A DNA stretch of 64,000 nt, from assembly GCA_010405405.1 (NCBI GenBank), contig MU004235.1, forward strand, positions 14,538-78,537. The letters run 5' to 3'. Positions 14,410 through 34,960 of this stretch are shown here, in pieces. This DNA is from Microthyrium microscopicum (Eukaryota). Both the position numbers and the translations under genes were made by a program. Under the pieces are notes generated by a model. The model was given only the letters and a program-made list of their open reading frames with translations. It searched no databases and was not told the DNA's origin. Numbering within the stretch: position 1 is the first letter of the stretch; each line of letters starts with the position of its first letter.

Positions 14410-14621
14410 CAAGGGGGTCCACAAAATAAAGGCGCGCTCCCAACGAGTGGATAGCTCCCATGCAAGACGATCTGCTATCGAGTGCTTTATTTGCCATAGA
14501 GCACGTTCAGACTTCGATTATTTCTCGAATGCGATGGGAAATATAACACGTTTGAATTAACAACGTTCGTGGGAGCCATCGACGCTGATGGGAGAACGCC
14601 AGTTATTTTGTCCATCCGTTG
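14410..14621 (+). mobile_element. MITE-like element, family A
   Basis: Inverted ends caa...acaaaataaaggcg / cgccagttattttgt...ttg. Highly similar to 39741-39953. Confidence 0.75.
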
Positions 14622-30244: not shown

Positions 30245-31727
30245 ATGGGCGCAATAGCACTATTCGTTGTCCTGCTCGGCTTGTTAGGTGGCCAAGGCGG
30301 ATTGGTAGATGCGAATGCAAATGGATATATACGAATTCCCGCTGCTGAAGCTGCGGGACTTAAAGTCTTTAGACGGGAAGCTGTGAGGTTCGCGGAGGGA
30401 AGTGGTGATGCTGGTACGTTGATTGCAATGTGAATCGTGCGTCTACTGATGGCAGATAGTCGCACCACATATCCTTCCTCTTCATACCTACGCGGGTGTC
30501 TCACCGAGTAGACGGTATCTGAACTTCCTCACCACCTCTCCCTCTGATGATCCAGGCCCAGCCGCCTCCACCATCGGCACTCCCTCGGCCTCCCTCCAGA
30601 ACTTCCAAGACTACGTCTATCTTGTCCCCATAACATTCGCATCCCAAACTTTCCTCGCAACCCTCGACACCGGCTCCGCAGATACTTGGCTTGCCACTTC
30701 GCCCTTCACCTGCCTCACGGCATCGAAAAACTGCGGTTTTGGACCGGGGTACAAAGCTTCTGCTTCCATGTCAACTATTGCTGGCGCGCGCATGGATGTA
30801 GCGTATACGACTGGTGAACAACTACAAGGCAAACTTGCCCACGAAACTGTCACGCTCGCTGGCATCAAGGTAGAGAAGCAGGTAGTTGGTCTGATGAGTA
30901 GAGGAAATTGGCACGGCGACGGAACGAGCAGTGGATTGGTTGGCATGGCCTTTCCCAACGATACGAATGCGTTTACCGGTAGTGAGGCGAACCCGATACG
31001 ATATGCATACGATTCGATATTTAGCTCCATGCATAAGAAGGGCTTGGTCAAGCCAGTCTTCAGTATTGCACTAGGCCGACCAGGAGAGGCGATGGGCGTG
31101 TTGGCATTAGGTGGTCTTCCTGATACAAAGGATGTCCAGACGACAGGCGAATGGGCACGAGAAAAATTGGTATATCTGCATTACGATGACGGAAAGCCTA
31201 TGAAACCGGCTGGCGTATACAATCTATACATGATCAACGTCAAGGGAATCACGACAAACACTACTGGTTCCACTGCCAACATTTCACCCAGTCCAGGTTC
31301 CAAAAACAGCAATTCGACGAGCCATCCCGAACATTTCGATGCCGTTCTCGACACTGGCTCCCCGCTGGTGTATCTGCCGAAAACGCTGGCACGTATCGTC
31401 AATGCGGGCTGGAGTCCGGCGGCGCAATTCGATATGGATGCGAATCTGTGGACTGTCGCTTGTGATGCGAGTGCTCCGACGTTGGATTTTGGTATAGGAG
31501 GCATGAAGGTTGGCGTTGATGCCGCTAGTATGGTGACGAAAGGTGGTGTTGGGACACTGCCGAAGGTTCCAAAGGGTCGGTGTTTGAGTGCAGTGCAGGA
31601 GAGTGGGCCATTAGCATTTGGGGTTCATATCATTGGTGCGCCGTTTTTGCAGAGCGTTGTTGCGGTTTTTGATGTTGGTGCTGCGGAGATGAGGTTTGCT
31701 AGGAGGGTCAATGGCATGGCAAAATAA
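30245..31727 (+). CDS. Secreted pepsin-family (A1) aspartic protease, 1 intron (~30414-30459)
   Basis: Signal peptide MGAIALFVVLLGLL; two catalytic motifs LDTGSADTW (~30663) and LDTGSPL (~31347); IIGAPFLQSVVAVFD. Confidence 0.9.
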
Positions 31728-31921
31728 ATGGTGTACTCCCATGAACTCTAATGGCGCCCATTAGCGCTGCTACTCATAAGGTGCTTCAATTCCTATCGTA
31801 TCTGCTAGATGTTCTTTATCCAAACGGTTCTTATGGCAATTAAAACACTCGATAACAGAGCCTAGCGTTTGGGCGTCATCAGAGTTGGTAGGAGTACGCC
31901 ATTTATTTTGCTATGCCGTTG
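31709..31921 (-). mobile_element. MITE-like element, family A, reverse orientation, overlapping the protease stop codon
   Basis: 31-bp near-perfect terminal inverted repeat caatggcatggcaaaataaatggtgtactcc / ggagtacgccatttattttgctatgccgttg. The interior matches the reverse complement of 14410-14621. Confidence 0.75.
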
Positions 31922-31960
31922 GCTGCCTTGGCCTCCACCGATTGACGTAGCCTCCTCTCC

Positions 31961-32174
31961 CAAACTGAAGACAGAATAAACGGAGCGCTCCCATCAGCTT
32001 CGTTGGCTCCCATGCGCTTCTTTTTGGTATGAACTACTTTATTTCCCAACGACGGCGAAGACATAGTTAAGACATAACGGATACGGTGGGATCTAGAGAG
32101 TCTGATATATAAACGGGAGTGATCGTAGACATCGCACTCGCTGGGAGGCGCCGTTTTATTTTGTTATATTGTTG
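31961..32174 (-). mobile_element. MITE-like element, family A, diverged reverse copy
   Basis: Left end acagaataaacggagcgctcccatcagcttcgttggctccca and right end catcgcactcgctgggaggcgccgttttattttgt match the reverse-complemented ends of the 14410 and 39741 copies. Confidence 0.65.
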
Positions 32175-32911
32175 GGTAGCAAAATAATAAATCCTCCAGG
32201 CTACCTGAGAGTAGTGTGGAAATTATAGGTAGTGACAATTCTAGTCAGCTGATACCATGCCTTATGACACTTTCTCTCCAAGGTGAGAGCGCCATGCGAA
32301 TGTCTTGCACAACTTGCATCATTATCTTTTTCACGGCCGACAAATCCATCAGCCATAAGTAGCTTCATCTAGCCAGTCACTGCCTAAATCCGGGAATGCT
32401 CGCGTCCATATTCTGTCACAGAAAACTTCTGCAGAAACCCATCTATACTGCTGTGTTGAGCCTTCAGAAATCGGATTTGCATCCACTCTGCAGACCTATT
32501 TTTGCAAAACGGTTCCCAAAACTCACTGCATCCACACTACCCCCTTCCACTACGCCCAAAGCTTCAAATTCAACCTGTTGTCCAACACTTTGATATATCC
32601 TCCAATATCATCCTCTTACATCGGCTCACCAATTCAGAACATTTGCTACTGGCTCAAATAACAAACACAACCACGGTCCACGAACACTCAGCCTGATGAC
32701 TGAAGTTGTTCAACCAATCGGCAGTCACGCCATGCCTTCTTGGGCTAAGCGTACAAGCGGACCCATGTCCTTTCGCACGTGCACGCTACCTACGATCCCC
32801 AGAAAATTCCCAACTTCAAATTCGAAAATATTCAAACCTTCTGCAACACTTACCAAAAACCGAACCTCTCCCTATCGCCGAATTCCCTACAGTCCGCCCT
32901 CCTTCGAAAAA

Positions 32912-33806
32912 ATGGCTCGTGGCCTCCGCTCTAATCGTCTCAAGAAAAACAACACGAAGCTACGCGCCAACGTCTTCGGCCCCGTCATCGATGCCCGCAC
33001 CGAACGCCTTGCTTCTAAGCAGGCAGAGGTAGTCGCAACTCCTCTTCCCGAACGGGAGCCTCCTAAAGAGGTCGAACCAGAGGTAGAAGACGCATCCAAG
33101 GCTGAAGGTATGTTGCAGAATATCTCCCTAGTTCAATCCCTTCATGCAACCTCATCCCGCTCCAATGTCCTGCACAACCCACTGGAACCAAAGGAACAGG
33201 ACTACCCTGCCAAGCAGACGATTCTTTCCGTGAATAGTGGTGCGGGAGAACCTCCAGATTGGCGCAAAATGGCACGCGCTCACTATACAGAGGATTCGCT
33301 ACCTCCCAAGCCCCTCGGCGATAACACAATCCGTACCGATAACCTGTTGTCCATAGCCGGAGATGGCAACCTTGAGTTCGAGGAATGGCAGCTCATACCT
33401 GGCCTTCAGACCGCCCTCGGATTCGCTACTTCCATAGCCGAGGACCACGAAACTGGCGATGTTCATTTCCGGCGTCCATATGACGAAGTCGAGGAGCCGG
33501 ATGATGACTTTTACACCAGCCTAGCCCTCTCTGGACTCCATGGATTTGAATTCACCTCCAATGGCATGGAGTTCCAACTTCCTGCATCTTTTATGTACTA
33601 GCAAGCTCTTGCATGACCGTTCTTGCTGACTTAACAATGCAGCTATGGATTTAGATGTCACTTCTGAATCAGTAAAGGGTTCTTCCAAGAAGCGCCCCAC
33701 GAGAAAAGAAGCGCGCAAAATCAAGAAGGATAGTCATCGCAAACCTCGAAACTTGATTGCATTCAAGACAAAGCCAAAGTCAAAACGACGACAACCTCGT
33801 ATATGA
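32912..33806 (+). CDS. DUF2423 (YBL028C-like) small basic protein, spliced form with intron 33108-33642
   Basis: MARGLRSNRLKKNNTKLRANVFGPVIDARTERLASK N-terminus. Donor G|GTATGT, branch GCTGAC, acceptor TGCAG. Exon 2 is Lys/Arg-rich: AMDLD...KKDSHRKPRNLIAF...RI*. Confidence 0.8.
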
Positions 33807-34367
33807 CCTGGGAATTAGTATTGGCAGGAAACTGACTGGACGATTGTGACGGCACACATTGACGACAGTATGAATCACATCATTGGGCGGGTTACACTGA
33901 TTTATTTGTAACTCTTTGTGTATTAGCAAGGCGCTGGGATTATTTATATAGCATTTCGATGCAGTACAGCGAGATTCCAATCATGTTGTTCTCATCCACA
34001 ATAAAAGCATCATTGTGATATCTCATTTCACCTTTAACCACTGTGAAGTGTTTTCCTTGGCCTGTGATCTAATTTCTGAGGCTGTAAGAGCTGGGCAGAA
34101 TGGACTGGACGCTAAAACACAGCGATACTTTGAACAGGCGGTATAATTCAAAGCGTCGTTATTGTGCTGTTGGCAAGTGTTAGCTTGACAGTCATCAGGT
34201 CGGCCAAATCGAAGGCGTGGAACAAGGCTCCCTAATGCTGTGCTCTTTTATCGAGTTATATGCCATGAAGGATGTTCAGATTCGCATGATTTATCCAATA
34301 CAATTCGAAAATATAGCAGTTCACGAATCCTTCAAATCAATATATTGTATCAAATCCCTATGCTTTT

Positions 34368-34960
34368 CTACACATAATGCTTATGCCTATTTAGCCGCCC
34401 CATCTGCACACTATTCGCCACTACAACTCCAATTCGACCCACATACTCCGTATGCTTTCTATTGCAGATCCGTCAGTTTCACTCTAAGATTCTTCAGTGC
34501 TCGCGCACTATCAATACCCGACAATGTGCTTCCATCGTCCGGCAACCCAAGATGCGCATTGTCTCATCTCATAGACGACACGTAGCCAAAAACGTCCGGC
34601 GCCACGGGATTGGCCTGCAACGAAATGCTAAAGACTGCAGTGCAGAAGAGGATAATGCTTGTGATTATATCAAGCACAAGCCAGTGAATCGAAAGATGAT
34701 ATCCAGGGGTAGGTAGCTCCGCACCCATGGCCGACTTTCCAGTTGCTGAGATTCTTTCCTTGGATGAGTTCAGGAGCGTGGTTGCGTTATAACTTGTCAT
34801 TCTTCCGACCTTAGACGCGGTAAGGCAGATTTTGACGAGTCGCGCAAGACCAGTGGACAAATCGAGGTTAGGATAGAGCGTATGTTCGTTCCAGTCTCCG
34901 ATATCCCAGACTGGATAGCCAGTTTTGTTAACATACCAAGTTTGCGCGCCGACGTTGTTC
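34368..34960 (-). pseudogene. 3' fragment of a fungal hypothetical membrane-protein gene, carrying nonsense and frameshift lesions
   Basis: A transmembrane segment is followed by APDVFGYVSSMR*DNAHLGLPDDGSTLSGIDSARALKNLRVKLTDLQ*, then GRIGVV...RLNRHKHYV* in another frame. This resembles a C-terminal motif I recall from uncharacterised Pezizomycotina membrane proteins. Confidence 0.55.

Follow-up and report, generated by a model that had tools for sequence, protein, structure and literature searches.

Exitrons, as Marquez et al. reportedly defined them in 2015, are introns with coding potential that lie inside protein-coding exons. Among the matches listed, the literature on exitrons that also mentions fungi concerns plants and animals only. 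In filamentous fungi, the available text of three papers describes intron retention that gives alternative C-termini or is coupled to nonsense-mediated decay (PMC6315744, PMC9118705, PMC3577648). Introner-like elements are described, in the accessible part of a further paper, as many near-identical copies in unrelated genes (PMC4457414). The present analysis concerns an intron with a long open frame in a stretch of 64,000 nucleotides (nt), hereafter the window, from Microthyrium microscopicum (Dothideomycetes, Microthyriales), which corresponds to positions 14,538 to 78,537 of contig MU004235.1 in assembly GCA_010405405.1. It is the single intron of a two-exon gene at 32912-33806 on the plus strand, which a reading of the sequence together with a Pfam match assigns to the YBL028C/LLPH family. 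According to the available portions of two sources, yeast Ybl028c is non-essential, is seen on pre-60S particles and undergoes cytoplasmic release, and LLPH is its human counterpart (PMC13732680, PMC10068337). About 400 nt of the intron (roughly 33185-33598) are best explained, from their sequence, as DNA that appears to be, or very recently to have been, translated in the frame of exon 1.

Reading on from exon 1 into the intron gives Gly (33107-33109) and 163 further codons (33110-33598), followed by TAG at 33599-33601. This is in accord with the original prediction, which had described a frame open for about 164 codons and stopping at 33601. The TAG stands 25 nt before the CTGAC of the branch-point region, and 41 nt lie between the stop and the acceptor. 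A run of at least 163 open codons in exon 1's frame occurred in 20 of 20000 dinucleotide-preserving shuffles of the intron (analytic estimate, 0.0013), so that the earlier statement that such a run is unlikely by chance stands. The remaining five frames of the intron contain 4-10 stops.

The frame is coding-like as well as open over most of the intron. With a codon model trained on eight long open reading frames (ORFs) of the window, the score of the intron frame is 0.285 bits per codon when stops are counted, compared with 0.225 +/- 0.075 for in-frame 163-codon windows of the same eight ORFs (n 133) and -0.36 +/- 0.16, with a maximum of 0.032, for out-of-frame windows of that length. When stop codons are left out, so that openness gives no help, the score is 0.223 (z 5.3), against -0.053 +/- 0.052 for shuffled sequences, of which 0 of 5000 come as high. 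In its two other frames, the intron scores -0.18 and -0.17. Three-base periodicity is also evident, since the chi-square of nucleotide by codon position gives p 6e-5 for the intron frame, compared with p 0.24-0.94 and best-frame scores of -0.04 to 0.005 for four intergenic control pieces of equal length. The GC content at the three codon positions is 0.61/0.41/0.55 in the intron frame and 0.56/0.46/0.50 in the training ORFs, and the overall GC content is 52-56% across the intron, compared with 39-45% in the intergenic DNA on both sides. Because openness, and not codon usage, was the reason for choosing this intron, the tests of codon usage and periodicity are independent of that choice, and chance is rejected. 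The cumulative codon log-odds stay level over 33110-33185 and then climb from 21 to 58 bits by 33598.

At 535 nt, the intron is a true spliceosomal one, and splicing removes it in the majority of cases. Its ends are GT..AG, with the fungal donor and branch-point consensus, and the canonical donor (GTATGT), branch point (CTGAC) and acceptor (CAG) that had been claimed for it can all be read in the sequence. Its use is seen in contigs of X1, one public run from one study that holds 0.84 of the sampled words; its kind, RNA, is a guess, and no listed holder of the stretch is on record as RNA. One X1 contig covers 32847-33105 and continues by a joint from 33105 to 33641 (cut +2; depth 454.1), skipping exactly 535 nt with GT..AG ends. 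The junction 33108-33642, whose absence had been named as one of two outcomes that would speak against the original prediction, is thus in use, and the spliced form is the major one. The GT..AG joint itself argues that X1 is RNA-derived. The contigs carry no strand and cannot show where an RNA starts or ends; they show presence, not absence.

A minor part of the X1 sequence keeps the intron. The only listed intron-bearing contig has no internal gap and shows RNA-like sequence in which at least the last 445 nt of the intron are still attached to exon 2. The other outcome named against the original prediction combined a lack of retained transcripts with stops and frameshifts in orthologous introns; its transcript half is countered by this contig. 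The contig over exon 2 (33641-33939) has a depth of 484.5. The depths of the spliced and intron-bearing contigs (454 + 41) sum to a value close to 485, which places the intron-bearing level at about one in ten, contig means being a rough guide only. The left end of the intron contig, 33198, falls on an AG (33198-33199), and the exon-2 contig has a similar start, 2 nt ahead of where the true acceptor ends. This AG could be a minor alternative acceptor, cutting at 33199/33200; the resulting 92-nt intron (33108-33199) would leave the ORF out of frame, with a stop after 12 codons. The start at 33198 could equally mark an internal 5' end of an RNA. No joint among the X1 contigs supports either the alternative acceptor or the internal 5' end. 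The intron-bearing RNA may reflect full retention, an internal 5' end or an alternative acceptor at 33198-33199.

Judged by its protein relationships, the host gene is unremarkable within the YBL028C/LLPH family, whose members are pre-60S ribosome-assembly factors. Residues 1-42 encoded by exon 1 match Pfam PF10338 ("YBL028C ribosome biogenesis factor, N-terminal domain") with an E value of 4.2e-16 and 59.3 bits, compared with a gathering score of 28.2. The exon 1 peptide also has relatives in the PDB that are chains of solved pre-60S particles, 8i9t_CO ("DUF2423 domain-containing protein", 120 amino acids (aa); E 3.7e-7) and 8esq_z (S. pombe C32H8.05, 117 aa; E 2.7e-5). The spliced product has 65 + 1 + 53 = 119 aa, and this protein, composed of the YBL028C_N domain, an acidic linker and a basic tail, is the main product of the gene. 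Members of the family are small proteins (about 105-120 aa) that typically end in a basic tail. The exon-2 tail (P0003) gave no Pfam family at E <= 1 and no PDB match at E <= 10, and its homology to the tails of other members is putative. Coordinates are collected in Table 1.

Table 1. Features of the YBL028C/LLPH-family gene and its intron, in window coordinates
Feature	Position	Strand	Basis and remarks
Minimum 5' untranslated region (UTR) of the gene	32847..32911	+	RNA-like contig covers 32847-33105; codon score without coding signal
Start ATG	32912-32914	+	Sequence; start not given in the original prediction
Exon 1, 65 codons + 1 base, ending in phase 1; YBL028C_N domain and acidic linker	32912..33107	+	Pfam, PDB relatives, codon score z 4.76
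Spliceosomal intron, 535 nt	33108..33642	+	Sequence signals and contig joint with GT..AG ends
Donor GTATGT	33108-33113	+	Sequence
Frame continuous with exon 1, 163 sense codons + TAG (peptide P0002)	33110..33601	+	Translation; shuffles
Core with protein-coding statistics (left edge approximate)	33185..33598	+	Cumulative codon log-odds
Stretch covered by the only listed intron-bearing X1 contig	33198..33670	.	473 nt, depth 41.4, no mismatches, no gaps, 28 nt into exon 2
In-frame ATG, possible start of a nested 110-codon ORF	33269..33271	+	Context caaaATGg; first ATG after 33198 in any frame
Branch-point-like CTGAC, then TTAAC	33626-33630, 33631-33635	+	Sequence
Acceptor CAG	33640-33642	+	Sequence
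Exon 2, basic tail: 2 bases completing the split Ala codon, 53 codons, TGA stop at 33804-33806	33643..33806	+	Translation; contig cover 33641-33939

Tentatively, and with rather less than even confidence, we favor a retained-intron isoform in which the frame is translated from exon 1 through the intron. In this scheme, a minority of transcripts would keep the intron. A ribosome starting at the normal ATG would read through the donor site into the intron and end at the TAG at 33599. The product would have 229 aa and the same N-terminal pre-60S-binding domain, but an acidic tail of 164 residues (net -16) would replace the basic one (net +15). The flip in tail charge that had been proposed is borne out at the level of the two peptides, the intron peptide carrying a net charge of -16 over 163 aa and the exon-2 peptide +15 over 53 aa. 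Two similar blocks had also been proposed within the acidic tail, and this claim was not upheld: 3 of 23 residues are identical in the ungapped comparison, self-blastp gives no off-diagonal match at E <= 100, and the best local alignment of the N part with the C part is equalled by 378 of 500 shuffles. That the retained RNA runs on from exon 1, that it is translated and that it has any function are what we infer; a regulated choice between the two forms and a changed localization, which the original prediction had put forward, are speculation.

Joining the intron ORF to exon 2 by a short 3' intron was considered and rejected. Such an intron would need a donor GT in phase 1, whereas the candidates are in phase 0 (33488) and phase 2 (33571 and 33595). 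As there is no phase-1 GT near the end of the ORF, the only routes of expression are read-through of the retained intron from the normal ATG or a start inside the intron. Retention accounts for both the continuity of the frame and the 53 open codons before the ATG at 33269 without coincidence, and it is therefore favored over a nested or relic ORF. The chance that a nested or relic ORF falls in exon 1's frame is 1/3, and the chance that the 53 codons from the donor to this ATG are open is about 0.12 (stop probability 0.040).

Several observations weigh against the retained-intron isoform. The contigs come from a single run and study, whose RNA nature is a guess. Among the listed contigs, the one that bears the intron begins at 33198, and the exon-1 contig passes unbranched through the donor into the spliced joint, so that none of them bridges the 5' splice site from exon 1 into the intron. 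A long intron that is spliced slowly would, without any function, also give unspliced RNA at a tenth of the spliced level. The first ~25 codons of the intron (33110-33185) contribute nothing to the cumulative codon score, and codons 1-53 reach a z of only 1.77 (104 of 3000 shuffles are as high) and have no periodicity, the power at 53 codons being low, as the true exon 2 of the same length has a z of only 1.37. The intron peptide has no relatives beyond a gene model from the same genome and hence brings no evidence of conservation, and a protein library would not hold orthologous introns anyway. Finally, single-sequence AlphaFold2 prediction on P0001 gave a mean predicted local distance difference test score (pLDDT) of 39 and a predicted template-modeling score (pTM) of 0.15, with a tail pLDDT of 27-37, which is uninformative and lends no support to a fold.

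A more specific form of the retained-intron isoform goes further, and we consider it possible but somewhat doubtful. A lineage-restricted coding sequence would have originated within the only intron of a conserved ribosome-assembly gene, or would have been captured by that intron, and selection would keep it in the frame of exon 1. One locus would then encode two proteins that share a pre-60S-binding N-terminal domain and carry opposite tails. If so, the acidic form with its 164-residue tail might work outside the nucleolus or be a competitor of the canonical basic form, and the intron ORF might also be read alone from the ATG at 33269.

Among the alternatives, the strongest is a nested gene, a serious rival that we nevertheless regard as unlikely. 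It would be an independent 110-codon ORF, from the ATG at 33269 to the TAG at 33599, with its 5' end inside the intron and the 3' end of the host; its agreement with exon 1's frame would be coincidental, and the 229-aa fusion would never be made in meaningful amounts. In favor of this explanation, the coding signal is concentrated downstream: codons 54-163 have a z of 5.17, with none of 3000 shuffles as high and a periodicity p of 1e-4, whereas the first ~25 codons are level. The context of this ATG nearly equals that of the true start (aaaaATGg), and no ATG in any frame lies between 33198 and it. The listed intron-bearing contig spans 33198-33670 and thus continues into exon 2, and the 41 nt from stop to acceptor imply that a nested transcript would have to share exon 2 and the host 3' end. 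On the other hand, the right frame (1 in 3) and 53 stop-free codons (~0.12) are jointly expected with a chance of about 0.04. The codon score already rises from ~33185, before the ATG, and gains 4.3 bits over 33200-33268, though z is only 1.44 there. Moreover, the start of an RNA cannot be read from the contigs, and compact fungal genomes rarely have genes nested on the same strand within introns.

It is less likely again that the frame is a relic or passenger, that is, young former coding DNA that came into the intron, by insertion into an ancestral short intron or as a captured fragment, and has not yet decayed. The intron RNA would then be ordinary unspliced or mis-spliced precursor, and any protein made from it would be of no consequence. 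Such an origin fits the lack of relatives of the intron peptide, for which no Pfam, PDB or Atlas match was obtained, as well as the non-coding appearance of the donor-side flank, the dominance of the spliced form in contig depth and the family-typical length of the spliced product (119 aa, compared with 120 and 117 aa). However, a captured fragment should have a parent, and the proteome of the same genome is in the library searched, as its protein P0005 was found; no second protein was retrieved at E <= 0.001 except a low-complexity repeat protein. No copy or duplication is present in the 64-kb window. An unselected frame of 136-163 codons closes quickly, so that this explanation needs a very recent event in addition to the same coincidence of frame as the nested gene.

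Several sources of a duplication were examined and rejected. Comparison of the intron with the window by blastn and tblastn gave only matches of 12-16 nt or with E > 1, and a repeat search of the window gave only short two-copy families. The best local score between the 5' region of the gene and the intron was reached by 34 of 300 shuffles, and that between the exon 1 peptide and the intron peptide by 61 of 500.

The two remaining explanations are very improbable. Ribosome-related genes often host small nucleolar RNAs (snoRNAs) in their introns, and the intron could be long because it carries a snoRNA or another structured RNA, its open frame being incidental. It could also be an introner-like mobile intron, elements of this kind being known in Dothideomycetes from the part of the source available (PMC4457414). 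Against both, there is no Rfam match at E <= 1 on either strand over 31500-34400 and no transfer RNA (tRNA), the intron RNA folds no better than its shuffles (z -0.36; 34 of 100 fold as well), the window holds no second copy of the intron, and the codon periodicity is explained by neither a snoRNA nor an introner. An ordinary long intron that merely happens to be open is similarly improbable: a genome has thousands of introns, so that a 1-in-1000 event occurs somewhere, and this one was picked because it is open, but the tests that played no part in the picking reject chance (0/5000 shuffles reach the codon score; periodicity p 6e-5), and the GC difference from the flanking intergenic DNA also speaks against it.

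In a phmmer search of the intron peptide against 1.84 billion representative proteins, two matches were found at E <= 0.001. One is P0005 (KAF2668908.1), a 733-aa "acid protease" of Microthyrium microscopicum that forms a singleton cluster, and its last 163 residues are 100% identical to the intron peptide; the other is a low-complexity repeat protein and is read as spurious. P0002 gave no Pfam family at E <= 1 and no PDB match at E <= 10, and its best ESM Atlas score, 0.76 (recognition 1761), is under the usable range. P0005 (window 30450-33601, plus strand) is a chimeric ab initio model that joins an aspartyl protease cut a few residues early, an invented intron, and then the 5' UTR, exon 1 and intron frame of the present gene. 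All it shows is that the frame was scored as coding by a gene finder too. Because the model reflects the same codon statistics, it is not independent evidence. For practical purposes, the public model KAF2668908.1 is a fusion of two genes at this locus, and the true 119-aa YBL028C/LLPH-family protein was not found in the protein collection by the searches made.

Other searches with the proteins of the locus gave no confirmed relative. Homologous-protein searches were made with P0001 at near lengths (269 candidates) and at shorter lengths (15 candidates), and with its residues 1-65 at shorter lengths (2 candidates). Metagenome scans with P0001 and P0004 matched 200 and 591 pattern stretches, respectively, none of which was confirmed by tblastn. 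Among the matches listed, no paper on this gene in Microthyrium microscopicum was found, the literature on the species consisting of taxonomy and surveys.

Two acidic-aromatic stretches are present in the acidic tail, at 33374-33397 (around the Trp of P0002) and at 33500-33523 (around its Asp-Asp-Asp-Phe-Tyr run). They contain two putative short linear motifs, one beginning at the Trp and one at the Tyr, that would resemble Atg8-interacting motifs, a kind of motif that is common by chance. Upstream of the start ATG, 106 codons (32594-32911, plus strand) are also stop-free in the gene frame, giving a stop-to-stop frame of 335 codons. These codons have no coding signal (z 0.57, periodicity p 0.32), and the stretch is G-poor, with a GC skew of -0.3 to -0.5. 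The upstream run is probably open by chance, because a G-poor stretch makes TAG and TGA rare.

The length of the intron was compared with others in the window by two motif-plus-ORF heuristics, which gave 15 and 28 candidates, many of them clearly spurious; four candidates measure 49-53 nt. The original prediction had put most introns here at about 50-70 nt, and its description of the present intron as far longer relies on what is generally known of fungal introns. The neighboring gene upstream encodes an aspartyl protease (PF00026, E 4e-36). Between its stop and the present gene, X1 depth is very high over 31668-32168, reaching 1852 in the bin 31835-32001. Odd X1 joints, from 32013 to 32125 and from 32009 to 34256, occur here. 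The minus strand has a frame of 86 codons (31903-32163), for which Pfam gave no family, and the stretch likewise matched neither Rfam nor any tRNA. The abundance may come from another organism or from a repeat. X1 contigs give no cover in the bins over 32169-32836 or over 33171-33197 (the bin 33171-33337 has 34.7 = 41.4 x 140/167), and no inference is drawn from this.

How much weight the finding carries turns on evidence that the frame is translated or conserved. Should it be translated, the locus would offer a clear example from nature of new coding sequence housed in a spliceosomal intron, in a conserved housekeeping gene for which splicing would choose between two C-termini of opposite charge. 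It would bear on the birth of orphan protein sequence and on the diversification of proteins by intron retention in compact fungal genomes. If it is not translated, what is left is a long intron of odd composition in a little-studied fungus, of minor significance.

With the YBL028C/LLPH family, the locus shares the N-terminal domain match, the alignment to pre-60S chains and the spliced length (119 aa, compared with 120/117 aa), whereas the acidic alternative tail of 164 residues occurs in no member looked at. Introner-like elements are highly structured. The present intron resembles them in belonging to the same fungal class and in its unusual length, but it has no copy in the 64-kb window and no excess RNA structure. 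Retained fungal introns are usually short and have no coding statistics. The layout found here, a retained intron with a stop inside, is standard among them, whereas the 164 residues that retention would add have full codon periodicity and no relative found. The likeness to exitrons is closer in composition: this spliceosomal intron has exon-like composition and codon statistics (z 5.3, p 6e-5), and its retention would be translated, not merely trigger decay. It differs from exitrons in its length of 535 = 3 x 178 + 1, in the in-frame TAG at 33599-33601, in having exon 2 in another frame and in its first ~25 codons, which look non-coding. Because the stop lies inside the intron and the length is not a multiple of three, retention here would swap the C-terminus rather than insert a segment. 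The unusual feature of the locus is that the only intron of a conserved housekeeping gene contains an orphan sequence of 136-163 codons that shows full codon periodicity.

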